Origin: Nibricoccus sp.
GTDB lineage: Bacteria; Verrucomicrobiota; Verrucomicrobiia; Opitutales; Opitutaceae
DNA length: 64,000 nt
Reading direction: 5' to 3'
NCBI GenBank assembly: GCA_047602425.1
Contig: JASGHG010000001.1
Coordinates: 3,136,001 to 3,200,000, forward strand
Positions 8,877-23,868 of this stretch are shown in pieces; positions within the stretch are counted from its first letter, which is position 1; every line of letters starts with the position of its first letter. A program made the position numbers and the translations under genes. Under the pieces are notes generated by a model. It saw only the letters and a program-made list of their open reading frames with translations, did not search any database and was not told the DNA's origin.

Positions 8877-11519
8877 TCAACTCGTCAGCAGCGACCTCAA
8901 ATCGGCGAGGGAGAGTTTGGCGGAGGCGGCGTCGCTGGCTTCGAAGACGTCGGCTAGGAGGGCGCGTTTGCTTTCCTGGAGTTGCAGGACTTTTTCTTCG
9001 ACGGTGCCGCTGCAAATGAGTTTGTAGCTCGTGACGACGCGGCTTTGGCCGATGCGGTGGGCGCGGTCGGTCGCTTGTGCTTCGACGGCGGGATTCCACC
9101 ACGGATCGAAATGAATCACGGTGTCGGCGCTCGTGAGGTTGAGGCCGGTGCCGCCTGCTTTGAGCGAGATGAGGAAGACGGGGATGTCGTTGGCGGTGTT
9201 GAATTGATCGACCGCGGCCTGGCGGGCGCGGGTGGACATCGAACCGTCGAGGTAGCAGAAGGGAATTTGTTGCGCTTCGAGTTCGGTGCGGAGCAGGGCG
9301 AGGAGCGAAGTGAATTGCGAGAAGACAAGCAGGCGGTGTCCGTCGTCGATCGCTTCGGCGAGCAATTCGCGGAAGGCATCGAGTTTGGCGGATTCGGAGG
9401 AAGGTGACGGGTTATGGGTGATGGGTGATGGGGAGGTGTCGGATTGGGGGTAGGGCGCGACCGCCGGGCGCGCCGGGCTTGCATCCAGCGCGGGCGGAGG
9501 TAACGGACGGCCCGGCGGTCCGTCCCTACCCGGCAGCAAGCGTGGATCGCAGCAGACTTGGCGGAGGCGGAGGAGTTGGGTGAGCGTGGCGAAACGGATG
9601 GCGTTTTCGGAGGCGCCGCTGGCTTCGAGGTCCATCAACGCGCGCTCGGACTCTTCCTGCACCTGGCGGTAGAGAGCGGATTGGGTGGGGGAGAGTTCGC
9701 AATAGAGCACCTGCTCGATCTTCGGCGGGAGCTCGGGGGCGACGGCTTGTTTGGTGCGGCGAAGGATGTAGGTGGCGGTCTTGGCGCGAAGACGTTCGTC
9801 GTACCAAAGGCGATCTTCGCCGCGCGTGCCGGGCGGAACTTTTTCGAGATAGCCGGGCATGAGCACCTCGAAGAGCGAGCGCAGATCGTCGAGACTGTTT
9901 TCGAGCGGCGTGCCGGTGAGGAGGAAGCGGCCGCGGGCGCGGAGGGAGCGGAGCGTCTGGGCGTTTTGGGTGCGGCGGTTTTTGAGATGTTGTGCTTCGT
10001 CGGCGATGAGGACGGCGAATTCGGTTTCGCCAAAGAGTGCGCGGTCGCGGGCGAGCGTGCCGTAGGAAGTGACGATCAGATCGATACCGGCAAAATCGGC
10101 GGCCTTCATGAGACGGCGGTCACCGTGGTGGATGAAGACGCGGAGTTGCGGGGTGAAGCGCGCGGCCTCGCGGCGCCAGTTTTCGACGAGGGTGGCGGGA
10201 CAGATGACGAGGGATGGGTGGTGGGTTATGAGTGATGGGTGATGGGGCGAAGGGCGAGAGGAGGTTATGGGTGATGGGTTATGGGTGATGGGTAGTTGGC
10301 TCTTTGGCGTTTGAGATTTGGAATTTGGGATTTCCTCGCGGAGCGCAGCGAGCACCGCGAGTGCCTGCAGGGTTTTACCGAGGCCCATTTCGTCGGCGAG
10401 AATGCCGCCGAGGTTATGCCGATACAGGTGCCAGAGCCAGGCGGCGCCGAGTTTCTGGTAGGGACGGAGCTGGGTGTCGAACCCGGCGGGGATGGGGGCG
10501 GGCGCGAGTTTGGAAAGGTTGCGCAGGGCTTCGCTACGTTCGCGCCAGGCGGAGGGCGGCTGGAAGTGCGGGGCGATTTCCTCGATGATGGCTTCGGCCT
10601 CGGCAAGGCGCGCGGTGCTGACGCGATGCGTGCGATTCGTGGTGACGCCCGCGCCGGTGTCTCCGGCGAGGGCACGCTGGGCATTGGCTAGTCCTGCGAG
10701 TTGTTTCGGCGAAACAAGGAAGACGCGGCCCTCAGCTTCGACATAACCGCGATTCGAAGCGGCGGCGGAGAGGAGCTGGTCTTCGGGGACCTTGCCGGCG
10801 CGGAGGGCGACCGTGACGTTGAAGCCGTTACCGTTGTCGACCGCATCGCAGACCACCTCGGCAGTGGTGAGGCGCGCGGTGTTTTTCTCGAAGTTGGGCG
10901 TGAACTCGGCATGAAATTCGTTGCGGAGCCGGTCGCCGTGGGTGGCGAGGAAATTGAGCGTTTTGTGCCGGTCGCGCAGCCACCACTTGCGATTGGAGGG
11001 TTCGAGAACGAAACCATTGGACTTCACTAATTCCAAAGCGGCGGAATAGGAAACGCTCTCGCGCGAAGGCAGCGTCACGGCGAGAAAATGTTCGGAACCA
11101 TCGACGGTGAAAGAAGTGGAGATATCACGCGAAGCGAGTGGCTTGGCGCGCGTCGTCGGTGATGGGGTAACTCCTGGGGGAACGTAGGAAGGGACGATGG
11201 TTTTTGGCGCATCGGGTTCGTTGAGGAATTCACTCACGCCGCGCAGAAGCGGGCCGACCCAGAGGACAGGGACTTGCGGAGCGTTGACCCAAAAGAAAAC
11301 AGGTTGGCCCGTAAGCAACGAGACAAGTTGACGAAGTTGGGCGCGTTTGAGTTGGAGGAAGGCGGGTGGTTTTGGCGTGCCGCACCAACTTTGAAGAAGG
11401 GCGAGGGCGGGCAGAATTTCCTGTGAGGGCGGTGCGTCGAGGTTCAGCTCAACCTTCAGCGCGATGGCATCGCGAGGCGCGGCGGCGGCGAGATTGGGCG
11501 GAAGCAGTAAACGCAACAT
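8877..11519 (-). CDS. SNF2-family (DEAD/DEAH-like) helicase
   Basis: LRPYQ, GILADEMGLGKT, LVICPATLVENW, IADEAQHLKN, LTGTPLEN, LLRLRQVC, VFSQF, LKAGGTGLNL, DPWWNPAVEAQATDRAHRIGQ. Confidence 0.95.
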   Translation of the reverse strand: MLRLLLPPNLAAAAPRDAIALKVELNLDAPPSQEILPALALLQSWCGTPKPPAFLQLKRAQLRQLVSLLTGQPVFFWVNAPQVPVLWVGPLLRGVSEFLNEPDAPKTIVPSYVPPGVTPSPTTRAKPLASRDISTSFTVDGSEHFLAVTLPSRESVSYSAALELVKSNGFVLEPSNRKWWLRDRHKTLNFLATHGDRLRNEFHAEFTPNFEKNTARLTTAEVVCDAVDNGNGFNVTVALRAGKVPEDQLLSAAASNRGYVEAEGRVFLVSPKQLAGLANAQRALAGDTGAGVTTNRTHRVSTARLAEAEAIIEEIAPHFQPPSAWRERSEALRNLSKLAPAPIPAGFDTQLRPYQKLGAAWLWHLYRHNLGGILADEMGLGKTLQALAVLAALREEIPNSKSQTPKSQLPITHNPSPITSSRPSPHHPSLITHHPSLVICPATLVENWRREAARFTPQLRVFIHHGDRRLMKAADFAGIDLIVTSYGTLARDRALFGETEFAVLIADEAQHLKNRRTQNAQTLRSLRARGRFLLTGTPLENSLDDLRSLFEVLMPGYLEKVPPGTRGEDRLWYDERLRAKTATYILRRTKQAVAPELPPKIEQVLYCELSPTQSALYRQVQEESERALMDLEASGASENAIRFATLTQLLRLRQVCCDPRLLPGRDGPPGRPLPPPALDASPARPAVAPYPQSDTSPSPITHNPSPSSESAKLDAFRELLAEAIDDGHRLLVFSQFTSLLALLRTELEAQQIPFCYLDGSMSTRARQAAVDQFNTANDIPVFLISLKAGGTGLNLTSADTVIHFDPWWNPAVEAQATDRAHRIGQSRVVTSYKLICSGTVEEKVLQLQESKRALLADVFEASDAASAKLSLADLRSLLTS
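9405..9432. repeat. Heptamer tandem repeat (TGATGGG/TTATGGG x4), in frame in the SNF2 gene
   Basis: TGACGGG TTATGGG TGATGGG TGATGGG, encoding PSPITHNPSP. Confidence 0.8.
9449..9530. repeat. GTAG-type REP doublet (REPIN-like), in frame in the SNF2 gene
   Basis: GGTAGGGCGCGACCGCCGGGCGCGCC ... GGACGGCCCGGCGGTCCGTCCCTACC, 82 bp with inverted GGTAGGG/CCCTACC ends. Translated as GRDGPPGRP...ARPAVAPY. Confidence 0.75.
10212..10333. repeat. Composite heptamer arrays (TGATGGG/TTATGGG and TTTGRRA types), in frame in the SNF2 gene
   Basis: About nine TGATGGG-type units plus TTTGGCG TTTGAGA TTTGGAA TTTGGGA. Encodes IPNSKSQTPKS...PITHNPSPIT...HHPSLITHHPS between helicase motifs I and Ia. Confidence 0.8.
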
Positions 11520-11677
11520 GGTTGTGAAAAGACTGCCCGGACGGTTCGGGGCGAGGCGAGAAAAACTATTTTTCGAACCATCGGGAATATTCCGTGCGCC
11601 GGTTGCTCTGACTCCCGTTGGCGTTTATTTGCGTCCGTGCGGATGCAGCGACCGACATGACTCAAAAGTGTATCACC

Positions 11678-12022
11678 ATGAAACATTCGACTAAGACCCT
11701 GCTCGCCTGTGCCGCGCTTGCCGGCATTTACTCCGGTTCCCTCGCAACGAAAACCTACGCCGCGTCGCACCGTGATGCCGGCACCAAGGTCCTCCTGGCC
11801 GCCGACGGTGACAAAGACAAAGCCTCTTGTTCCGGCAAGGACGGCTGTGGCGGCAAGGACAAGTCCAGCTGCAAGGGCATGCACGACTGCAAAGGCAAAA
11901 ACGATTGCAAGGGACAAGGCGGTTGCAAATCCAGCGACAACGGCTGCAAGGGCAAAAACTCCTGCAAGGGCAAAGGCGGTTGCTCGACGGCCAAGAAGCA
12001 CACCGAAGAAAAGAAAGCCTGA
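11678..12022 (+). CDS. Secreted Cys/Lys/Gly-rich MNIO RiPP precursor (bufferin BufA2-like)
   Basis: Sec-type signal peptide (MKHSTKTLLACAALAG...), then a core with 9 Cys, mostly spaced C-x5-C (CKGMHDCKGKNDCKGQGGC...CKGKNSCKGKGGC), directly upstream of DUF692. Confidence 0.85.
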   Translation: MKHSTKTLLACAALAGIYSGSLATKTYAASHRDAGTKVLLAADGDKDKASCSGKDGCGGKDKSSCKGMHDCKGKNDCKGQGGCKSSDNGCKGKNSCKGKGGCSTAKKHTEEKKA

Positions 12023-12044
12023 GTATCCAAAAAATCACTTCAAC

Positions 12045-12070
12045 GGCGCCGTCGCGAGTTGGGCGGCGCC
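12045..12070 (+). other. Intergenic stem-loop between precursor and DUF692 genes
   Basis: GGCGCCGTC-gcgagttg-GGCGGCGCC stem with no U-tract. Confidence 0.55.
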
Positions 12071-12087
12071 ATCAACCATTTCATCCC

Positions 12088-12951
12088 ATGCCCGCCAATC
12101 GATTCAATGGACACACCGAGTACGGCATTGGACTCGGTCTGCGAGTGCCGCACTACCGGCATATCTTATCGAACAAACCGACTTGCGCGTGGTTTGAGAT
12201 CATTTCGGAAAATTTCATGGTCGATGGCGGGCGGCCGCTGGAGGTGCTCGACAAGATCCTCGAACAATACCAAGTCGTGCAACACGGTGTGTCGATGTAT
12301 TTTGGTTCGGCCGACAAGCCGGATCGGGCGCACTTGCAGAAGTTGAAACGCCTGGTCAAGCGCACCAAGACACCCTGGCTCTCCGATCATCTTTGCTGGG
12401 GCAGTGTCGACGGCACTTATACCCACGATCTGCTGCCAATGCCCTACACGCGCGAAGCGGCCAAACGCACGGCGGAGAAAATCAAACACGTGCGTGATTT
12501 CCTCGAAGTGCCGATTTGCGTGGAGAACGTGAGCTCCTACATGGAATTTCATGCCTCGGAGATGACTGAGTGGGAGTTCCTCACCGAAGTCGTCGAACTC
12601 GCCGACTGCGGAATTCTTCTCGACGTGAATAATATTTACGTCTCCTCAAAAAACCACGGCTTTGATCCAATGAAATACATCGAAGGTATCCCGCATCACC
12701 GGGTCGGCCAGATGCACATCGCGGGTCACACGAAGTTCGAGAAATATATTTTAGACACGCATGACCATCCAGTGCTCGACCCGGTTTGGAAAATGTACCG
12801 GCGGGCGACGGAACTGTGCGGCGTGACGGCGACATTGCTCGAGTGGGACGACAAGATTCCGTCCTTTGACGAAGTCCACGCCGAGGCACTGAAGGCGAAT
12901 CAATATATCGACGAAGCCCGTGAAGCGCTCGTTCAGCATGCCAAAAACTAG
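12088..12951 (+). CDS. DUF692 multinuclear non-heme iron oxidative enzyme (MNIO; MbnB/TglH/BufB family)
   Basis: GIGLGLR, FEIISENF, QHGVS, WLSDHL, DLLPMP, VENVSSY, LLDVNNIYV, MHIAGH, DTHDHPV, LLEWD. Start at ATG 12088. Confidence 0.95.
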   Translation: MPANRFNGHTEYGIGLGLRVPHYRHILSNKPTCAWFEIISENFMVDGGRPLEVLDKILEQYQVVQHGVSMYFGSADKPDRAHLQKLKRLVKRTKTPWLSDHLCWGSVDGTYTHDLLPMPYTREAAKRTAEKIKHVRDFLEVPICVENVSSYMEFHASEMTEWEFLTEVVELADCGILLDVNNIYVSSKNHGFDPMKYIEGIPHHRVGQMHIAGHTKFEKYILDTHDHPVLDPVWKMYRRATELCGVTATLLEWDDKIPSFDEVHAEALKANQYIDEAREALVQHAKN

Positions 12952-13867
12952 ACGCCGCCCTGCCGAAGTTATGCCCGATCTTGAGCCGCGCGATCTGGCC
13001 GCCTGGCAGCGCACGATGCATGCGGCGATCACGCGTCCCCTCGCACCGGGCGATCGGGCGCAACGACGCTGGTTCGATGGCGGCTCGACGGCGCGGGCCA
13101 TGGCGAAACTTGTCAAACCGAGTCGAACCCTCCAACCCGTCGAACGAGTCGAAATCTACAATCGCATGTATTGGTTTCGCATCCTCGACAGCCTTGCGCA
13201 GGATTTCCCTGGGTTGAAGGCGTTATTGGGCGACAAGAAATTCTGGAAGCTGGCGGAGACATATCTGGCGGTGTGCCCCTCGCGTTCGTTCACGTTGCGC
13301 GACCTCGGATCGAGGCTGGAAAAATTTATCGCGAGCGAAGCCGCTTTGGTGGAACCCTATTTGGCGGCCGCGCTCGATATGACACATTTCGAGTGGGCGC
13401 AAATCGTGGCCTTCGACGGACCGTCGAAGCCGAAGTTGCGCAAGGCGCAGTTCGAAGGAACGAACCCGAACCAATTGCAACTCGGCCTGCAGCCCTATTT
13501 GACTATCCTCAACTGTCGGCATCCGGTCGACGAGTTTGTCCTCGCGGTGAAACGCGACGGGGCTTTGCGCACGGAGGCCAGCAACGCGGTGTTGGCGCGG
13601 ATCGAGTCGACGGGCGAGGTGGTGGAATTGCGTCGCGGACCCATTTTATACCTCGCGGTGCATCGCATGGACAACCAACTCTATTATAAACGGCTCGATA
13701 GAGAGGCAGCGGTTTTATTGCGCGCGCTGCGGGCCGGACGAACGTTGGCGGAGGCCTGCGCCGCAGCTTTTGCGCGTTCGAAGCTGGGTGAGGCGGAGCA
13801 GGCGGAAACGCTGAAGCAGTGGTTTTCCCTCTGGATGCGACTCGGTTGGCTCTGCGCGCGGGAATAA
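12938..13867 (+). CDS. DUF2063 (BufC/HvfC-like) MNIO partner protein
   Basis: RVEIYNRMYWFRILDSLAQDFPGLKALLG..F..LA..YL...PSRSFTLRDLG, DMTHFEWA. Overlaps the DUF692 stop. Confidence 0.88.
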   Translation: MPKTRRRPAEVMPDLEPRDLAAWQRTMHAAITRPLAPGDRAQRRWFDGGSTARAMAKLVKPSRTLQPVERVEIYNRMYWFRILDSLAQDFPGLKALLGDKKFWKLAETYLAVCPSRSFTLRDLGSRLEKFIASEAALVEPYLAAALDMTHFEWAQIVAFDGPSKPKLRKAQFEGTNPNQLQLGLQPYLTILNCRHPVDEFVLAVKRDGALRTEASNAVLARIESTGEVVELRRGPILYLAVHRMDNQLYYKRLDREAAVLLRALRAGRTLAEACAAAFARSKLGEAEQAETLKQWFSLWMRLGWLCARE

Positions 13868-13892
13868 AACGGCGGTTCGATGGCTCTAAATT

Positions 13893-14366
13893 ATGACTAT
13901 GCAAATCACATCATTAAGGACTCGATTTGAGGCGATGGCCGATTTTCTTCGCTCGCCGCTGTTGCTGGTGTTGAGGGTTTATTGGGGATGGCAATTTGTT
14001 CAAGCGGGCTGGGGAAAGATCATGAATCTGGAGAAAACCGCCGGATTCTTTCGCGACCTCGGAATTCCCGCACCCCAACTCAATGCGATCCTCGCGGGCG
14101 GCACCGAATGCATCGGGGGACTGCTGTTGCTGCTGGGACTTTGGGCAAGAATGGTGAGTGTGCCTTTGATCGTCACAATGGCCGTGGCTTACGCGACTGC
14201 GGAGCGCGAGGCCCTGCGCTCGATCGCGAGCGATCCGGACAAATTCACCTCGGCGGCGCCGTTTTTGTTTCTGCTCGTGTCCCTCATCGTACTGGCCTTC
14301 GGGCCGGGAACTTTCTCGGTGGATCGGTTGCTGAAACGCGAAACCAACATTAATAACAAGGCCTAA
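13893..14366 (+). CDS. DoxX-family membrane protein
   Basis: LRVYWGWQFVQAGWGKI, F..LGIP.P, E..GGLLLLLGL..R, GPGTFSVD. Confidence 0.92.
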   Translation: MTMQITSLRTRFEAMADFLRSPLLLVLRVYWGWQFVQAGWGKIMNLEKTAGFFRDLGIPAPQLNAILAGGTECIGGLLLLLGLWARMVSVPLIVTMAVAYATAEREALRSIASDPDKFTSAAPFLFLLVSLIVLAFGPGTFSVDRLLKRETNINNKA

Positions 14367-14372
14367 GCGCCC

Positions 14373-14927
14373 ATGTCGGACGACGCCTTCACACAACTCG
14401 TGGATATGTACTATCCATCGCTTTATCGCTTCGCGCTGAGTCTGGCGCGCAGCGAGGCGGACGCGTGTGATCTGGCGCAACAGACCTTCTATGTTTGGGC
14501 AAAAAAAGGCCACGCGTTGCGCGAGGCGGCGAAGGCAAAGTCCTGGTTGTTCACCACGCTATATCGTGAATTTCTGCGAGGGCGGCGCCGCGGCGAACGT
14601 ATGACGGCATTGGATACGGTGCCGGAGAGCCAGTTGGAAGAAGTAACGCTGGAACCGGAAATCGTGGCATCGATGGATGGCGGCGTGGTGATGACCGCGT
14701 TGCAGGAGGTGGAGGAAATTTTTCGCGCACCGCTGACCCTTTTTTATTTGGAGGAACTTTCCTATCAGGAAATCGCCGAGACGTTGGAGGTTCCGGTTGG
14801 TACGGTGATGTCGCGGCTTTCGCGTGGGAAAACGCAACTGCGTGCACGTCTGGCCTCGCGTATTGGGACAAAATCCGGAACAGTCGTGCCGTTCCAGAAT
14901 TCAAACAACAAGGCCTCCCATGGATAA
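14373..14927 (+). CDS. ECF RNA polymerase sigma factor
   Basis: Region 2 LYRFALSL...DACDLAQQTF...KSWLFT; region 4 LSYQEIAETLEVPVGTVMSRLSRG. Confidence 0.95.
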   Translation: MSDDAFTQLVDMYYPSLYRFALSLARSEADACDLAQQTFYVWAKKGHALREAAKAKSWLFTTLYREFLRGRRRGERMTALDTVPESQLEEVTLEPEIVASMDGGVVMTALQEVEEIFRAPLTLFYLEELSYQEIAETLEVPVGTVMSRLSRGKTQLRARLASRIGTKSGTVVPFQNSNNKASHG

Positions 14928-15648
14928 CAACGAGGCAAAATTCATTCTCAAAGCCTACCGACCCGGCGGTGCCGATGCTGGCGACGCGCAGTTTAGCGCG
15001 GCGCTGACCCAGGCGGAGCGCGATCCGGAATTGCGGGTCTGGTTCGAACGCGAACAAGCATGCGACAAAGCCATGGCCGTGAAATTGAAAGCGATTCCGG
15101 TGCCTGCGGGTCTGCGCGAATCCATCCTCGCGGGTGGCAAAGTGACGGCGGCGCGGCGTGCCTGGTGGCGGCAGCCTTTCTGGCTGGCGATGGCGGCCTC
15201 GGTGGCGTTGTTAATCGCCGTGGTTTCAATTTGGCGCTATCAGACGGTTTCGACTGATTGGAGTCAGGTGGTGGCGCAATTGAGTGCCGATGCCGCGCAT
15301 GCGGAGAAACATGGCTCTGCAGGCGAGACCGCGAAGCAATTTACAGCGCTGGTGGCGAATGCGAGCACGCATTTGAGTTCGCCGTTGCCGGTCAACTTGG
15401 GACGACTCAAAGCCGACGGCTGCCGCACGCTGACGGTGGCTGGCCACGAAGTGATGGAAATCTGCTTCGAGCGAAACGGCGGTGAATTTCACCTCTACGT
15501 GATGAAGCGGCCGCCATCGCGGGATGTGCCGTCCGGACCGCAATTTGCCGCTCGTGGCGCGATGCACTCGGTGCTTTGGACCGACGCCAATCATCTTTAT
15601 GTGATGGCGAGCGCCAAAGACGAAGCGGCGCTGAAGGCGCTGTTATAA
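14920..15648 (+). CDS. Membrane-anchored anti-sigma factor (DUF3379-like)
   Basis: Overlaps the sigma stop codon. Cytoplasmic N-terminus (L.AYRPGG.D...P.GLRESIL), one TM helix (WLAMAASVALLIAVVSIW), and a periplasmic domain with GCRTL...EICF...FHLYV. Confidence 0.75.
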   Translation: MDNNEAKFILKAYRPGGADAGDAQFSAALTQAERDPELRVWFEREQACDKAMAVKLKAIPVPAGLRESILAGGKVTAARRAWWRQPFWLAMAASVALLIAVVSIWRYQTVSTDWSQVVAQLSADAAHAEKHGSAGETAKQFTALVANASTHLSSPLPVNLGRLKADGCRTLTVAGHEVMEICFERNGGEFHLYVMKRPPSRDVPSGPQFAARGAMHSVLWTDANHLYVMASAKDEAALKALL

Positions 15649-15704
15649 TTTCAGGTTGTCTTCGACTGTATAAATACCGGTTTTAGCCTTGCCGGTAGTT
15701 TAGT

Positions 15705-15787
15705 GGTAGGGACGGCTCTCCGAGCCGTCCGTCATCGTCGCGGGCGTTTCTACATCGCAGCGGACGTCTCGGAGAGACGTCCCTACC
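15705..15787. repeat. GTAG-type REP doublet (REPIN-like), intergenic between convergent genes
   Basis: GGTAGGGACGGCTCTCCGAGCCGTCC ... GGACGTCTCGGAGAGACGTCCCTACC, 83 bp, same architecture as 9449..9530. Confidence 0.8.
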
Positions 15788-15838
15788 ATCGATCCAATTC
15801 GAATGAATGTAAATCTGCTGCCTGAGCGACGCAGGCTG

Positions 15839-16894
15839 TCAGCTTTTGGCGCTGTTGAGCGGTCCGGCTGCGAGCTGGCTCCAAAGGGCTACGGCTTTTT
15901 CGTTGAGAATTTCGCGGGCGCGTTTCACTTCGGCGGTGCGGGCGGCGAGGTTTTCCTCCGCGATCTTGGCGAGGTCGTCGAGGTTGTAGAGAAACACGTT
16001 TTCATGTCCCGCGGCGGCGGGGTCGACGTCGCGCGGCAGGGCGAGATCGATGAAGAAGAGCGGTCGTGCGCGGCGTTGTTTCATCGCGGCGTGAATGACC
16101 TCGGCGGTAACGACGACTTGAGGCGCTGCAGTGGAGCAAACAACGATATCGAAATCGTGGAGACGCGCGGCCCATTGTTCGAACGGCAGGGCAGTGGCAC
16201 CCAGCGTACTCGCGAGCTCCATGGCACGCTCAAGGCGGCGGCTGGCGACGGTAAGGTCTTTCGCGCCGCGACTTTGAAAAGCCTTGGCGGTCTTGTCGCC
16301 GATCTCGCCGGCGCCGAGGAGAAGAATGCGCGCTTCGCCTAGTTGACCGAAAATTTTTGTGGCGAGATCAACCGCGACGTTGGCCACGCTGATCTGGCCC
16401 TCGGTGATGGCGGTGTGTGTGCGAATGTATTTCGCGTATTGAAAGGTTTTTTGGAAAACGCGATTGAGGACGGGGCCGGTGCTGTGACGGGTCTGGGCGG
16501 CGGCGTACGCGTCCTTTACCTGGCCGAGAATCTCGGTTTCACCGAGCATCTGCGAATCGAGCCCGGAGCAGACCTCGATCAAATGTTCAATGGCTTCGCG
16601 GTTTTGCGCGTGATGGCGGATGGAGGCGAATTCCTCCTCGGAAAAGCCCTGGAAGGCGCAGAAGGCGGCTTGGAGCTTGGCGATGGTTGCGGGATTTTCC
16701 GCGCAGCCGTAAAACTCAACGCGATTGCACGTATTGAGCACGGCATGTTCGCGCAGACCGGGCAACTGGCCGAGCTGGGCGAGAAAGGCGTTCATCTTGT
16801 CCGGGGTGAGCGCAAGTTTTTCGCGCAACTCAATGGGCGTACGATGATGATTCGCGCCAAGGATGAAGAGCGTGGAAGCTGGCTGGTCGCTCAT
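15839..16894 (-). CDS. hemA: Glutamyl-tRNA reductase
   Basis: GANHHRTPIELREKL, LNTCNRVEFY, GLDSQMLGETEILGQVK, LGAGEIG, IDLALPRDVD, YNLDDL. Confidence 0.96.
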   Translation of the reverse strand: MSDQPASTLFILGANHHRTPIELREKLALTPDKMNAFLAQLGQLPGLREHAVLNTCNRVEFYGCAENPATIAKLQAAFCAFQGFSEEEFASIRHHAQNREAIEHLIEVCSGLDSQMLGETEILGQVKDAYAAAQTRHSTGPVLNRVFQKTFQYAKYIRTHTAITEGQISVANVAVDLATKIFGQLGEARILLLGAGEIGDKTAKAFQSRGAKDLTVASRRLERAMELASTLGATALPFEQWAARLHDFDIVVCSTAAPQVVVTAEVIHAAMKQRRARPLFFIDLALPRDVDPAAAGHENVFLYNLDDLAKIAEENLAARTAEVKRAREILNEKAVALWSQLAAGPLNSAKS

Positions 16895-17910: not shown

Positions 17911-18680
17911 TTACTGAGATCCATTGGCCTCGAAGTGAGACCAGGGGAAAGAACCGACGTAATGGATGTAGTACTTGCCGTTGATCTTAGCGGGCATGCT
18001 ATTGGACCAACGGTTGGTGTAATTGACACCGTTGATCTCGAGCAGCTGGAGATTCCAGCTGTTGACATAGTTGATGGTGCCCGACGTTTCCCAACAGAAC
18101 TCTCCAGCGCCATCCTTGGCAAAACTGAGCGTGATCGCGACCGGATTGGCGCAGGGCGTGGTTGCAACCGGAGTGACAGTGATGGCCGAAGACGCGGTGA
18201 AGCCGCCGCTTTGCGTAGTGGCGGTGATGGTGGCCGAACCAGCCGCTACACCCGTAACGACGCCCGAACTGTTGACAGTGGCGACGCTGGTGTTGCTGGA
18301 AGACCAGGTGACCGTCTTGTTCGTGGCATTGCTTGGCGAAACCGTGGCGGTCAGCGTGGTGGTGGCACCGACGTTCACCGAAGCGGAAGTCGGGGCAACG
18401 GTCACGCCGGTGACGGGCACGACGACATTGGTGACGGTGATGGCCGAGGAAGCGGTGAAGCCGCCGTCCTGCGTCGTGACGGTGACCATGGTGGAACCGG
18501 CCATGGAACCGGTGACCACGCCGGAATTGCTGACGGATGCAACCGCGGGATTATTCGAAGTCCAAGTGACCGCCTTGTTGGTGGCGTTGCTCGGTGAAAC
18601 CGTTGCGACCAACGTCGTCGTGCTGCCCAGATTCACTGTCGCCGAGGTCGGCGCGACGGTTACGCCGGTGACCGGCACAT
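17911..18680 (-). repeat. Duplicated Ig-Ig-CBM64 tail, copy 1 (copy 2 at about 20877..21650)
   Basis: About 255 C-terminal residues are nearly identical between the GH48 and GH9 proteins; DNA differences are mostly at third codon positions. Confidence 0.9.
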
Positions 18681-20670
18681 TCGTGACAGGAGTGCCGAAG
18701 AAGCGTCCATATTCCGCGTTGGCAATGGCGATGGAAGCCTGCGCCCAGAAACGATGGTACGCTTTTTTGTAATCCGTGCCGCTGTTGTAGGCGGTGACGA
18801 GCGCGGCCCAGTCCGGATCGCTGCGATACTTGGAACGGATGTCGATGAACTTTACGCCAGGTACAATCACATCGCCGTTCGCCATTTTGCCGGACCAGCC
18901 GGTGGGAATATAAACGGTCTGGTCGAAGAAGCGGCGGAAGTCCGCGCGACTCTCCGTCACGGCGACGCCTTTGCCGTTGGGCTCATAATATTTTGTCCAC
19001 ATGCGATCGAGGATCTGTTGAGCGAGATCGCGGGAAGCCGTGTCGAGCGTGCCCCAGCGCTGGGTCGCGGCGGCATAGTAGGTGAAAGTCTGGGCGAGCG
19101 CCGCGGCGATACCCAGGTCGGTGCCATAGCTAGCAACATTGACGTGCAGGCCGGTGTTGGCGGTGGGACTGGCGGGAACCCACGTGTTGGGCGCGCCGCT
19201 CCAGCCGATTTCACTGGGAATCTGAAAACCACCGTCGGACGTGAGCTGAACCACGGATTTGGCCCAAGCGATCCATTTGTCGAGAACGGCCTTGGCGCGG
19301 GCATTGTTCGAGACGTAGTAGTATTCGGCGACGCGTTCCATCGACCAGGCTTGCATGCCGAACCAAGTGTTACTACCCGGGTCGTGATAGACGGGATTTT
19401 CCTGGTAGGCCATGCCATAGAAAGTCGGCGTGCCGGAGGGATACGGATCGTAGTTGCCATTCAAGCTGTTGGTGGCGCCGCCCGCGATCGCGCCTTCTGC
19501 GGACTGCAGCCATTGATAAAACTCGAGCTGGCGGGTCAGGCTTTGACCCCAGTCGCGAGCGCCGTTGGTGGAAGCCGGACGCAGATCCGTCGTGGCACTG
19601 AGCGCGTACGCGGCGAGCGGATTTTGGTAACCGAAATGGTTGTGGCTGCAACCAATTCGCCAGGCCCAACCCTGTGAAGTGAGCGGACCGCCCCAGGCGT
19701 AATACCAGGACAGAAGGTAGTGGGCGCTATTGTAGCCGGTGCCACCGGGGCCGGTCTTGCTCTGCGAACCGATCGGCTTGAAATATTTGTCGAACATGGC
19801 GAGGCGGATGAAGTCGCCCATCTTCGCGGCTTTGGCCACCGGCAGCGTCGTCGCGGGATTCAGGCCCTGATTGCGGGCGAATTGCACACCCCAATAAATC
19901 GCCTGCACCGCGCGGGCGTCGGCGTCCGGCGCGTTGGTGTAACGCCACTGGGCTGCGGGAGCGGAAGTTTCGCTGATAAAGAGCCGGAGAAAGCCCGTGC
20001 CATCGTTGGAACCCCATTTGAAATTTTCCCAACTGGGATGAGGAACCGTTTCCCAGACGGACTCCTGCTCGCCGCGTTGAAACGTATTGATGTAGGAAGG
20101 CGTGCTGACGCCATCGCCCTTTTTGCCATAACCGTAGAAGTTATCGCAATCGAAGAGCCAGTGCATGCCATAGATATTCGATCCATAGGCGGCGGTGAGA
20201 TCGGGCGAGACCGGATCGACGCCGACAGGCACCGTGCTTTCCAATGGCGATGGGTAGTTGTTCGGTAGCGGGAATTCCCGCGCGAACGTCGCTGGGGCAT
20301 TCGGATTGTAGCTGCCGGTGGTTGGCTGGAGATCGGAGGTGGGAATCGCATACGCCTCCATCTTGGTCCAGGCATTGTTGAGCGGGGTCCAGTTGCCGGT
20401 GATTCTTCCGTTCATAACCTCAAGCCAGAGCCAATACGAATAGGCCTCGCTGGTGGTTTCATGGCCGTGGTCGGGCGCTTCGCAAATCAACGTCTCCACG
20501 CTATGATAGGGGACGCCATCCTTGCTGAAATAACCATTGGCGGGGTTTACGATTTTTGCGCGCAAATCGAGAAAGCGCTGTTCATAGGTGTTTTGTTGCG
20601 AGAAGGCTGTGGAGCCGACGATGCAGGCGAGGCCCAGCGTGGCCGCCAGGGTGCGCAGATATTTTTTCAT
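17911..20670 (-). CDS. Secreted GH48 cellobiohydrolase with two Ig-like (Big_2) domains and a C-terminal CBM64-like module
   Basis: Signal peptide; [68 protein letters not shown] (GH48); two [19 protein letters not shown] repeats; tail DGAGEFCW...[21 protein letters not shown]...YYIHY...WSHFE. Confidence 0.95.
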
Positions 20671-20803
20671 AACAGCTATCAGTTGATGGTTAGTGATAAG
20701 GTGTGGTTGCACCGCGTATATGAGGCGGCCCGCAGCACCCGTTGTCGCCAGAGGGAAGGCCGAACGAGTCGGCACGGAAAATTTTCAAAACGGGAACCCC
20801 AAT

Positions 20804-20876: not shown

Positions 20877-21650
20877 TTACTGAGAGCCATTGGCCTCGAA
20901 GTGAGACCAGGGGAAAGAACCGACATAGTGGATGTAGTACTTGCCGTTGATCTTCGCGGGCATGCTATTGGACCAACGATTGGTGTAATTGACGCCGTTG
21001 ATCTCGAGCAGCTGGAGATTCCAGCTGTTGACGTAGTTGATGGTGCCCGACGTTTCCCAACAGAACTCTCCAGCGCCATCCTTGGCAAAACTGAGCGTGA
21101 TCGCGACCGGATTGGAGCAAGGCGTGGTTGCAACCGGAGTCACGGTGATGGCCGAAGAGGCGGTGAAGCCGCCGCTTTGCGTGGTGGCGGTGATGGTAGC
21201 CGAACCAGCCGCTACACTTGTAACGACGCCCGAACTGTTGACAGTGGCGACACTGGTGTTGCTGGAAGACCAGGTGACGGTCTTGTTGGTGGCATTGCTC
21301 GGCGAAACGGTCGCGGTCAACGTGGTGGTGGCGCCAACGTTTACCGAAGCGGAAGTCGGGGAAACGGTCACACCGGTGACGGGCACGACAACATTGGTGA
21401 CGGTGATCGCTGAGGAAGCGGTGAAGCCGCCATCCTGCGTCGTGACGGTGACCATGGTGGAGCCGGCCATGGAACCGGTGACCACGCCGGAATTGCTGAC
21501 GGACGCGACGGCAGGATTATTCGAAGTCCAAGTGACGGCCTTGTTCGTGGCAGTGCTCGGTGAAACGGTTGCGACCAACGTCGTCGTGTTGCCCAGATTC
21601 ACGGTCGCCGACGTCGGCGCGACGCTGACTCCTGTCACAGGAACGTTGAC
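20877..21650 (-). repeat. Duplicated Ig-Ig-CBM64 tail, copy 2
   Basis: Near-identical to 17911..18680. Confidence 0.9.
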
Positions 21651-23573
21651 GACGGGCGAGGGTGTCTGGCCCCAGACCAACGTACCGTTCACATAAAGCG
21701 GAATATTATTCGTATTCTTTAAAGTGCCATCAAGACCCTGATACGACCAGTCGTTGGTTGGGCTCCACGCAGCGGCCGGAGCTTCGTAGGGCAACCTGAC
21801 GCGGATTTGGGCCTCCTTGGTGGATTCGCCCTGGCCGCCCGGCCAGATGTCGACGCTCGATTGGAAAATTACCTCTGTGTAATAGATGTTGTTGGCTGCA
21901 TCCCACGGTTGCAATTGGGTGAACGTCACGTAGGCATTGTTGGCTGAAACGACATAGCTGCTCGCCGTATAGCCTGCGGCGAGGCCTTCGCTAATGTTCA
22001 CGAATATACGGAATTTATATTGGCTTGCCGTCCGGGCCGGCCACGCCGTGTGGTTGTTCACCCAGACAGAATATTCGGTGTAGGTGGTTCCCGAACCATT
22101 AAGCCGAGCCTGAACGGTGAATTCTTCGCTCGGCGTTTCCGCGACCGGGAAGTTCGCGAGAGGAGTCCCACCAAAATCCTGGACAAGTTTTGCCAAGGCT
22201 CCGGAAAACAGAGCGTTATAATCGCAGGCGACTTCGTTTTTAGTATAGTCGCCCCGTGAATCGGCGTAGGAATCGTCCGAGCCCGGTCCGCCGACAAGCG
22301 CGCCGTAGAGGATATGGCGGGTGTTGGATGGAGGGCCGTTCAAATTGTTGGCCCAAGCGCCATGCGCCGTCCGGTGGTGAGGGTTGACGGGTGGATTGGT
22401 GCCGAAGCCGCAGACATAGCTGCGGTTTTGCGGATTGCTGCCGAGAATATACTTAATCTGATTGACGGCGAAATTGTAGTATTTTGTCGCCTTGGCGGTG
22501 GTTGTTGCAACGGGTTGATAGTACAAAGCGACAAAGGCCGTATTCGCCGCGTAACGCAGCGAGCCCCATTGATCCAGCCACGCCAGCCCGCCCGGTGTGT
22601 AGGTGATGCGGGAGCCATTGTAGCCGTCGGTCCAATAGTCGAGGTTCCGCTCCGCATCGGTTTTGTACTGCGCCTTGCCAGTCAAGCGGGCGAGCAGGGC
22701 ATAGCAGCCGTAGGACTTGTCATCCCAGCCAAGTCCCCAGCGATAGGACTTAGTCGTGGATTGTGGTTCGGTTCCGAGATTGGCATAGTAGGACTCGGCC
22801 TTGGCGAGATAGGTGGCATCGCCAGTGGCGCGATAGAGCCAGATCGCGCCCCAGACCAACTCGTCGTTGTAACCGCTGTAGGAATTATAGTAACCGGCCG
22901 CGTCAGTAATGGCGCCGGTGTATACGCCGCGATAGGTATCGGCGAAACTATATAGTTGTTTTGCGTGGTTCAGGAGGGTGGCGCTATAGGTCGGATCGTC
23001 GGAAGCGAAGACCATGCTTGCGGCGGCCATGGCGGCGGCGGTCTCCGCAGCCAGGTCCGAGCCGGGATGGGCCGCATCGATTTTATAGGCGGGACGGGTC
23101 ATTCGCATCACCTCACAAGATCCCCACCAAGCATGATCCGTCCCGCCATTGCCGACCTGCCCCCATAGTTCGTTGGGCGCAGTGTGACAGCGTATAAAAT
23201 AATCGTTCACGAAACGCAGATTGTTTTTCAAATACTGCAATTGCCCTGAGGAAGTGTAGCCCGATGAGAAATCGATCGCGCCCCACGCCAGACAGGTGGC
23301 GGAAAATGCCATGGGGAAACCGAACTTCACATGGTCGCCCGCATCGTACCAGCCGCCCGTGAGGTTGAGGCCGACGTCGGAACCATCGGCGAGCGCGGAA
23401 TTCGCGCGCCAAGTGACACGATGGGTGGACGGCAAGGTGCCCGAACGCTGGGCCTCGTAAAAGAACATCGATTTCTGAAGCGCCTCGGCATAATTGTAAC
23501 TTTGCGCGGTGACTTGTACAAATGTGGCCACGAACAAGCAAAAGGCCACCAGCCTCTTAGTATATGTCTTCAT
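20877..23573 (-). CDS. Secreted GH9 endoglucanase with CBM3c, two Ig-like (Big_2) domains and a CBM64-like module
   Basis: Signal peptide; YNYAEALQKSMFFYEAQRSG, GGWYDAGDHVKFGFPMA, WGSLRYAAN, PHHRTAH, GALVGGP, NEVACDYNA (GH9); CBM3-like EEFTVQAR...NHTAWPAR...WPGGQ...EAQIR...W.PTNDWSY; same tail as the GH48. Confidence 0.95.
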   Translation of the reverse strand: MKTYTKRLVAFCLFVATFVQVTAQSYNYAEALQKSMFFYEAQRSGTLPSTHRVTWRANSALADGSDVGLNLTGGWYDAGDHVKFGFPMAFSATCLAWGAIDFSSGYTSSGQLQYLKNNLRFVNDYFIRCHTAPNELWGQVGNGGTDHAWWGSCEVMRMTRPAYKIDAAHPGSDLAAETAAAMAAASMVFASDDPTYSATLLNHAKQLYSFADTYRGVYTGAITDAAGYYNSYSGYNDELVWGAIWLYRATGDATYLAKAESYYANLGTEPQSTTKSYRWGLGWDDKSYGCYALLARLTGKAQYKTDAERNLDYWTDGYNGSRITYTPGGLAWLDQWGSLRYAANTAFVALYYQPVATTTAKATKYYNFAVNQIKYILGSNPQNRSYVCGFGTNPPVNPHHRTAHGAWANNLNGPPSNTRHILYGALVGGPGSDDSYADSRGDYTKNEVACDYNALFSGALAKLVQDFGGTPLANFPVAETPSEEFTVQARLNGSGTTYTEYSVWVNNHTAWPARTASQYKFRIFVNISEGLAAGYTASSYVVSANNAYVTFTQLQPWDAANNIYYTEVIFQSSVDIWPGGQGESTKEAQIRVRLPYEAPAAAWSPTNDWSYQGLDGTLKNTNNIPLYVNGTLVWGQTPSPVVNVPVTGVSVAPTSATVNLGNTTTLVATVSPSTATNKAVTWTSNNPAVASVSNSGVVTGSMAGSTMVTVTTQDGGFTASSAITVTNVVVPVTGVTVSPTSASVNVGATTTLTATVSPSNATNKTVTWSSSNTSVATVNSSGVVTSVAAGSATITATTQSGGFTASSAITVTPVATTPCSNPVAITLSFAKDGAGEFCWETSGTINYVNSWNLQLLEINGVNYTNRWSNSMPAKINGKYYIHYVGSFPWSHFEANGSQ

Positions 23574-23868
23574 GACTAACGGGGGTTGAGGGTTGTATAA
23601 TCCGCAGACGGTTTGTTGGGAAACCCACAACAGGAACGGCCAAAGCAAAATGGTCACTCCCCCGCCATGCTAGATCATGAACGTGTCCTCTTTGAGCAAT
23701 CCGTCAAAAGGCATTCCAGTCTGTCGTTAGAGCAAAGTGTTTTATTACCTGACAATAAAATTATATAACGCACCGCACACTCGTACGATGGCGCTGCGTT
23801 TCAGACAATATACAACCGGCGCTTTCCATCGCTGCGCGCTGCCGGCGCCGAGAAAGGCGCATCCCGAT

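Follow-up and report, generated by a model that had tools for sequence, protein, structure and literature searches.

A probable Cys-Lys captophorin operon of Nibricoccus sp. and its predicted ECF sigma switch shared with methionine-repair genes

A 64,000-nucleotide (nt) stretch of the genome of Nibricoccus sp. (Opitutaceae, Verrucomicrobiota; GCA_047602425.1, contig JASGHG010000001.1, 3,136,001–3,200,000, forward strand), called the window here, was analysed, and all coordinates are positions within it. Six intact open reading frames in one orientation occupy 11678–15648 (Table 1), encoding a Cys-rich precursor peptide, a DUF692 enzyme (MNIO, an oxidative enzyme that depends on multinuclear non-heme iron), a DUF2063 partner, a DoxX membrane protein, an extracytoplasmic function (ECF) sigma factor and an anti-sigma factor. 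On the sequence evidence, we consider it likely that this is an intact operon for a Cys-Lys captophorin resembling bufferin 2 (Buf2), whose Cys residues would be oxidised to 5-thiooxazoles and which would be exported by Sec and bind copper in the periplasm, and that the adjacent ECF sigma switches it on together with msrA and msrB, the two methionine-repair genes of the genome. We infer the thiooxazole chemistry, the inducer and the binding of copper. As a biosynthetic cluster it belongs, without special features and so far uncharacterised, to a published class and by itself adds little, because the peptide class is already known; the putative promoter, regulon and sensor are the new part and are well backed by comparative evidence.

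A motif, GGAATA-N16/17-CTC, was found before the precursor gene (P1) and before the doxX-sigma-anti-sigma genes (P2). A promoter matrix was trained on 29 sites from other loci, with the window and its same-genus relative left out. Four matches in the genome scored at least 22, namely those before the precursor gene (23.5), doxX (23.0), msrB (22.5, G000:C1:2882781) and msrA (22.4, G000:C1:1108867), and the products of both msr genes begin with signal-like N-termini. At the same threshold no match was obtained in the reversed genome or with six spacer shifts, and ten shuffles gave a mean of 0.4 (range 0–2). Matrix matches below about 20 were near the chance level, and further regulon members were not discerned in this genome; the motif was absent from its thioredoxin-fold homologs. 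Because the predicted promoter also precedes both methionine-repair genes, the peptide is likely made when the cell responds to oxidative damage beyond its cytoplasm.

The same motif was found before the sigma gene in relatives. It lay 33–43 nt 5′ of 20 of the 24 stand-alone sigma orthologs in the family (the misses being three near-variants and one cut by a contig end) and 28–40 nt 5′ of 9 of the 16 outside the family. These putative autoregulation sites are the strongest evidence for a cognate switch. A site preceded doxX in 26 of the 46 family MNIO loci, and P2 is likely an autoregulatory loop. A loose form of the motif occurred 5′ of 32/87 precursor genes, all 32 from Verrucomicrobiota and none from Acidobacteriota. 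The exact pattern had 6, 7, 4, 6 and 8 matches in five other MNIO-bearing genomes, against 1, 0, 0, 0 and 1 in a backward control. Judged by N-terminal sequences, the genes 3′ of these matches included msrA in 5/5 genomes, msrB in 4/5 and an exported AhpC-TSA/thioredoxin-fold protein in 3/5; several matches preceded nothing recognisable. Of the 11 family genomes whose anti-sigma ortholog is strong, 8 have the msrA site, against 0/7 with no ortholog and 0/2 with weak matches; it was also absent from G001, whose anti-sigma status was not searched. The predicted regulon of the sigma factor is mainly one of methionine and thiol repair.

The anti-sigma factor is predicted to consist of an N-terminal helical sigma-binding domain, one transmembrane (TM) segment at about residues 86–108 and a periplasmic domain. 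Its only Cys are at 48, 168 and 182; Cys48 is not conserved, and C168, C182, H191 and W220 were invariant in 93/93 homologs, 67 of which matched DUF3379 at E ≤ 0.001. The anti-sigma structure was modelled with a mean confidence score (pLDDT) of 90.5. A fold search with it returned nothing at E ≤ 0.001 (best RseB, 6e-3), and a wide fold search gave middling Z values only (MucB 5.9; anti-sigma domains RskA 5.0, RsiW 4.9, MucA 4.9 and RslA 4.6), which fit the assignment and do not prove it. The modelled sigma/anti-sigma complex scored 0.79 against 0.13 for the best control, with at least 95% contact agreement between runs and a partner pLDDT of 87; the mark used for such scores was reached by 116/157 solved pairs and 2/215 mismatched pairs, and the score may be due to likeness to solved anti-sigma complexes. 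The genome holds 23 matches to the ECF sigma of the window, and its next closest paralogs are at most 35% identical. The ECF sigma and the DUF3379-like anti-sigma are probably a cognate pair.

The initial annotation had given the cluster its own sigma/anti-sigma pair. The pair does belong with the cluster, but it is a family-wide regulator: the anti-sigma ortholog (E ≤ 1e-30) was found in 85 of 151 family genomes, that is, in 47/47 with an MNIO over the Pfam cut-off and in 38/104 without one. Within the fetched stretches the pair adjoins the MNIO operon, upstream or downstream, in 11/46 family loci; adjacency was clear in five cases among the 80 named loci used (the best of 500 confirmed out of 601 candidate stretches) and was also seen in G289 and G318 from other families. 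The named loci closest to the window were mostly from Opitutaceae and other Verrucomicrobiota, followed by Acidobacteriota. Most forks of a quick MNIO tree were open, so the tree does not fix the number of independent linkage events.

Several observations weigh against the proposed operon and its switch. The co-occurrence counts overstate the association because the genomes are kin, and the matrix matches before precursors are partly circular because the matrix was trained on precursor promoters. The msrA site was missing from 3 of the 11 genomes of the family in which the anti-sigma ortholog is strong. The msrB site was found in 3/9 anti-sigma-bearing genomes, in 0/2 with weak matches and in 1/6 without the anti-sigma, this one being G022 (96% complete), where no sigma ortholog was found. 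Neither of the two exact matches in G027, which has the anti-sigma and no MNIO, precedes an msr gene; two genomes without a listed anti-sigma match had one and no exact match. In a phylum sample of 251 genomes, 3/15 BufB-bearing genomes had no anti-sigma match; in the two of these that were checked (G262 and G298; loci L295, L296, L297 and L298), the BufB-type MNIO and DUF2063 stood without a matching precursor, and the sigma ortholog, itself diverged in sequence, had no anti-sigma gene next to it. Three of the nine core Cys of the precursor are followed by Ser or Gly and not by Lys. Finally, the content of the regulon does not identify the inducer, because Caulobacter SigF also controls yedY, yet buf1 and buf2 answer to copper (PMC3511200, PMC11626156).

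Metal stress had been proposed as the inducer in the initial annotation. It is only one of two candidates, because the sigma factor is family-wide and its predicted regulon is mainly methionine and thiol repair. In the copper alternative the chemistry would be the same, the switch would be a dedicated copper sensor with C168, C182 and H191 binding copper, the peptide would buffer copper, and msrA and msrB would be co-induced only for copper-caused damage. The two invariant Cys and the His could be metal ligands, NrsF senses metal through two periplasmic Cys (PMC3511200), and Cu induced buf1 and buf2 of Caulobacter vibrioides, which Fe, Zn and Mn did not (PMC11626156). However, a search of the 4 kb upstream of each of the genome's three CPC-type P1B ATPase genes, and of its single multicopper-oxidase-domain match, gave no motif (the best score was 8.7, against 11.7 reached by random 4-kb windows), 38 of the 85 switch-bearing genomes have no MNIO, and the common targets are Msr and thioredoxin-fold proteins. 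We regard a dedicated copper sensor as unlikely, although it has to be taken seriously. A more specific form of the oxidation reading is offered tentatively, as possible rather than probable: the sigma/DUF3379-like pair would be an undescribed Verrucomicrobiota ECF group sensing periplasmic oxidation through the invariant Cys168, Cys182 and His191, and captophorin genes would have been recruited into its Msr regulon independently of Haemophilus/Neisseria and of Caulobacter.

The precursor has ten Cys, nine in the core as initially annotated (51, 57, 65, 71, 77, 83, 90, 96 and 102) and Cys11 in the signal region. The core Cys are spaced 6-8-6-6-6-7-6-6, forming three repeat-type Cys and then a six-Cys module (6-6-7-6-6), and are followed in order by S, G, K, K, K, K, K, K and S. 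These multiple Cys-Lys motifs place it in the Cys-Lys captophorin group; no Lys-Cys motif occurs in its sequence, which sets it outside the EGKCG/oxazolin (Lys-Cys) group. By eye, a basic N-region, a weak hydrophobic stretch (no 19-residue window with hydropathy above 1.6) and a T-Y-A site at 26–28 were recognised in a region conserved in relatives, and export by Sec is likely. Cys11 was ruled out as a lipoprotein Cys, since only four residues of the hydrophobic stretch precede it and a Cys stands there in just 12/43 relatives. An AlphaFold model of the precursor (pLDDT 47) had no fold elements, leaving a beta-solenoid core unsupported. Three exact three-Cys repeats were likewise ruled out, the spacings being irregular and relatives gaining or losing single hexamers. 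No second precursor gene was found elsewhere in the genome.

The cluster had been called complete and BufA2-like. Its MNIO-DUF2063-DoxX set and its Cys-Lys kind agree with this, but the precursor fails the cut-off of the NCBIfam BufA2 model NF050166 (33.5 against 60), its nine core Cys do not fit the six or twelve conserved Cys of Buf_6/12Cys, and the distal sixth Cys is missing: BufA2 is spaced 6-6-7-6-13 and the module here 6-6-7-6-6, so the disulfide-closing Cys of BufA2 has no direct equivalent. On sequence, the precursor is filed as a Cys-Lys captophorin that would work like Buf2, and not as a strict BufA2.

From 46 family MNIO loci, 43 whole precursors were obtained (G033 was mis-parsed, one G095 copy lay at a contig end and G173 had none). 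Their core Cys numbered 6 in 25, 8 in 7, 9 in 7, 10 in 3 and 11 in 1. The six-Cys module was present in 36/43, 14 of these 36 having extra Cys, mostly in preceding CK(G/A)xx hexamers; in the other seven (L017, L200, L210, L219, L223, L230 and L233, from G020, G089, G129, G118, G120, G152 and G167) the module was lost and CK hexamers alone were left, beside MNIOs 76–83% identical to that of the window. The precursor had been credited with more potential modification sites than the short characterised bufferins; this was overstated, as 18/43 family precursors have 8–11 core Cys through these expandable repeats and fontiphorin carries seven thiooxazoles (PMC13097082). Precursors from other named loci had six Cys in 57/61 cases, making Cys expansion an Opitutaceae trait in this sample. 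The Opitutaceae precursors may form a natural series that starts with the six-Cys module, passes through module plus repeats (the window gene) and ends in CK repeats alone, while the neighbouring enzyme stays highly conserved. Two complete six-gene copies were seen in G095 (G095:C73 and G095:C120; L201 and L203), and at L071 the sigma/anti-sigma pair is flanked by two precursor genes.

The MNIO gene is the sole one in the genome. Its product passes the BufB cut-off (Table 1) and falls below those of HvfB, ApyH, ChrH and MbnB (the HvfB-type model NF003818 gave 248, below 360). The metal-ligand motifs initially reported as intact were indeed so: H66, H101, E146, D179, N182, H210, D223, H225 and E252, which we take to be the iron ligands, align with 3BWW and 8HCI. 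The LEWDD segment (D254, D255) aligns with ERDF of 3BWW, an Asp following the predicted catalytic Asp, and the LLEWDD motif was present in 51 of 52 extracted MNIO relatives (two loci were not extracted). In Cys-Lys-group MNIOs the position of FonB Phe250, which follows the catalytic Asp, is characteristically taken by an Asp (PMC13097082), and we infer that the window enzyme carries this Asp, the FonB position having been mapped from the text description and not from an alignment. The DUF2063 gene adjoins the MNIO gene, as a partner should, and its product passes PF09836; its start codon is ambiguous (GTG 12920, ATG 12938 or ATG 12971). The gene order matches that of bufABCD clusters (PMC12452194).

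Every characterised product of an MNIO-PME1 pair contains 5-thiooxazole, and as a rule these products bind Cu (PMC13097082). Buf2 of C. vibrioides, which aids growth in copper, loses 4 Da at each of its four central Cys; its mass shift of −18 Da was read as four such losses and one disulfide (PMC11626156). The text of that paper names the unmodified CysI "Cys24"; counted along the 61-residue core, however, CysI falls at position 12 and CysIII at position 24, so this is probably a slip, and it bears on the modified sites.

As an alternative, the precursor might not be converted to thiooxazoles, or might be modified otherwise, and act as a plain thiol- or disulfide-rich periplasmic scavenger. 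No characterised product of this subtype was found in the accessible literature, and a precursor that fails NF050166, has no BufA2 distal Cys and has no predicted fold would suit such a role. Against it, the BufB-type enzyme is intact and has the Cys-Lys-group Asp, MNIO identity of 76–93% across the ten closest family members implies strong selection, and nine core Cys cannot all form disulfide pairs; we consider it very improbable. An unrelated sigma/anti-sigma neighbour with another sigma factor driving the cluster, as the adjacency in a minority of family loci, the many sigma paralogs and a survey finding no sigma genes in Buf2 clusters (PMC12452194) might suggest, is very improbable, as one motif precedes both the precursor and stand-alone sigma orthologs, adjacency recurs in differing orders and in other Verrucomicrobiota families, and no sigma-70-type site was found in 11400–16000.

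On the preferred reading, the one-TM anti-sigma would hold the sigma factor at the membrane, and oxidation, or metal attack, at periplasmic C168, C182 and H191 would free it. The sigma factor would then transcribe from GGAATA-N16/17-CTC at P1, P2, msrA and msrB, with P2 giving positive feedback. The MNIO-DUF2063 pair would remove 4 H per Cys, most likely at six Cys-Lys sites, giving about −24 Da on a core calculated at 8,662 Da for cleavage after residue 28 (modification of all nine Cys would give up to −36 Da). A probably unfolded poly-thiooxazole peptide would mop up Cu, and perhaps oxidants, with the Msr enzymes repairing oxidised proteins.

Buf2 clusters are described as having the order precursor-MNIO-DUF2063-DoxX, the precursor bearing 6 Cys in 90% of them and otherwise 12; the same survey scored Opitutus terrae and a second Opitutaceae genome Buf2-positive and Lacunisphaera limnophila negative, and reported sigma genes in Buf1 but not Buf2 clusters (PMC12452194). 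The operon shares with bufferin 2 of C. vibrioides (BufA2B2C2; PMC11626156, PMC12452194) the BufB-type MNIO, DUF2063, the gene order, a precursor with a predicted signal, the first five Cys spaced 6-6-7-6, Cys-Lys motifs and, as predicted here, ECF sigma control. It differs in having nine core Cys, a last Cys 6 and not 13 residues on, no BufA2 C-terminal segment, added N-terminal hexapeptide repeats, DoxX and an adjacent regulator; in BufA2 a disulfide between CysI and CysVI closes a small folded domain. With captophorins, a unifying class whose Lys-Cys group includes fontiphorin, oxazolin and gonophorin (PMC13097082), it shares the MNIO-PME1 pair, a Cys-rich and probably exported precursor and expandable short Cys repeats, the repeat here being a CK(G/A)xx hexamer and theirs EGKCG. 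The lineage had been noted as having no characterised product, and none from Verrucomicrobiota is characterised among the captophorins of PMC13097082; cluster type and lineage were nevertheless already catalogued (PMC12452194, PMC13097082). In Data Set S2 of the latter the core Cys of Opitutaceae precursors number 6, 9, 10 or 11; one from Nibricoccus aquaticus has the nine-Cys layout seen here, one from Opitutus has 11 Cys, and others consist of repeats only.

The froABCD genes of Pseudomonas aeruginosa are presumably a bufferin-type cluster. FroR of this organism induces msrB/P/Q on hypochlorous acid (HOCl) (10.1101/2022.02.01.478687). In Haemophilus influenzae (RpoE2/HrsE) and Neisseria (SigE/MseR), one ECF sigma serves msrAB and a DoxX-precursor-DUF692-DUF2063 cluster; the H. 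influenzae regulon is induced by HOCl and that of Neisseria is similar (PMC7907618). Their anti-sigma is a 67-residue cytoplasmic zinc-binding anti-sigma (ZAS) protein, whereas that of the window is a 242-residue protein with a single TM and a Cys/Cys/His domain predicted to be periplasmic; the precursor here belongs to the Cys-Lys kind. Caulobacter SigF/NrsF (ECF16), with a six-TM DUF1109 anti-sigma bearing two periplasmic Cys, controls both buf operons and yedY (PMC3511200); the window anti-sigma has one TM and no DUF1109 match, and the promoter motif here, GGAATA/CTC, is not GTAACC-N16-CGAA. The logic of one ECF sigma for Msr and captophorin was therefore already known, but the parts here differ. 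We consider the system likely to be a periplasmic oxidation-repair regulon convergent with those of Haemophilus RpoE2 and Neisseria SigE and run by a different, undescribed switch.

On PRK12517, a model that we take to be linked to ECF28, the window sigma scored 72.5, below 197. DUF3379 anti-sigmas are mainly those of ECF28, a group proposed to act in the degradation of aromatics and reported without a conserved promoter motif (PMC7826278). A one-TM DUF3379-matching anti-sigma at position +1 is shared with that group (PMC7826278 supplement); ECF28 is, however, 99% gammaproteobacterial with thiolase/FadL neighbours, whereas the pair here is from Opitutaceae, lies between SNF2 and hemA and has a DUF3379 match limited to residues 27–118. 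The promoter listed for ECF207, GAATAA/GGTCT (PMC13492112), resembles the window motif, but its HX3CX2C zinc-finger anti-sigma motif is absent from the window anti-sigma. No description of this Verrucomicrobiota pair was found in the literature, of which the supplements of PMC12452194 and PMC11626156 and the rest of the ECF-classification file could hold a prior mention. Outside the family, at L244, L249, L250, L252, L254 and L258, the pair was followed by a secreted YceI-like gene (by eye). A different ECF sigma, 27–30% identical, adjoins the operon in Acidobacteriota clusters (downstream in L046, L056, L059, L061 and L076, divergent in L074 and L095) and is possibly another independent regulator; a TGTTAC/TGTAAC element was seen 5′ of several Acidobacteriota precursors (loose pattern, no control).

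The six genes were confirmed as co-oriented and tightly spaced, with Pfam cut-offs passed (Table 1). The precursor and MNIO genes are 65 nt apart, the MNIO and DUF2063 genes overlap, doxX is separated by 25 nt from the gene before it and by 6 nt from the sigma gene, and the sigma and anti-sigma genes share 8 nt. The precursor-MNIO intergenic region folded below −15 kcal/mol in 25/25 relatives, many with a T run (no shuffle control), and the hairpin is likely a transcript stabiliser or partial terminator yielding excess precursor mRNA. An SNF2 helicase gene (8877–11519, minus strand) is divergent from P1. SNF2 is divergent from sigma in 17/36 anti-sigma loci, but from the precursor in G000, G004 and G007, suggesting that a four-gene cassette was likely inserted at an older SNF2/sigma junction in this lineage. 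A palindromic intergenic repeat with several diverged genome copies (19 BLAST rows, including both strands and self-matches) lies 3′ of the anti-sigma gene at 15701–15795. Two tandem secreted glycoside-hydrolase-like genes (17911–20775 and 20877–23657, both minus; GH48-like and GH9-like by eye) have near-identical C-terminal Ig-like repeats.

Table 1. Features of the putative captophorin locus (positions within the window)
Feature	Position	Strand	Remarks
Predicted ECF promoter P1, GGAATA-N16-CTCTGA	11584..11611	+	94 nt 5′ of precursor start; best genome-wide matrix match, 23.5
Precursor, 114 residues	11678..12022	+	28-residue predicted signal and 86-residue Lys/Gly-rich core; NF050166 33.5 bits (cut-off 60)
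9-bp GC hairpin between precursor and MNIO	12045..12070	+	Fold −20.6 kcal/mol
MNIO (DUF692), BufB type, LLEWDD motif	12088..12951	+	PF05114 355 bits; NF050167 347.3 > 310
DUF2063 partner (PME type 1)	12938..13867	+	PF09836 55.5 > 27.2; HvfC model 44 < 142
Predicted internal ECF promoter P2, GGAATA-N17-CTCTAA	13861..13889	+	Precedes doxX-sigma-anti-sigma; second-best genome match, 23.0
DoxX membrane protein (BufD/HvfX-like)	13893..14366	+	PF07681 82 bits; NF050144 79.5 (cut-off 80)
ECF sigma factor	14373..14927	+	Sigma70_r2/r4_2 Pfam cut-offs passed
One-TM anti-sigma, DUF3379-like, 242 residues	14920..15648	+	DUF3379 35.1 > 33.2 over residues 27–118

For an ECF/anti-sigma pair present in over half of the sampled Opitutaceae, there is now a predicted promoter together with a set of putative targets and a candidate site of sensing. 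The loci with the sigma pair qualify the statement in the survey that Buf2 clusters are without sigma genes (PMC12452194), and the series of precursors with 6 to 11 Cys is a substrate panel for site choice by Cys-Lys MNIOs. The question raised is whether captophorins are made against copper, oxidants or both, and it could be addressed in one small heterologous system. If the oxidation-sensing reading is true, captophorins would serve chiefly to protect against oxidants in the periplasm, and their binding of copper would be one aspect of this.

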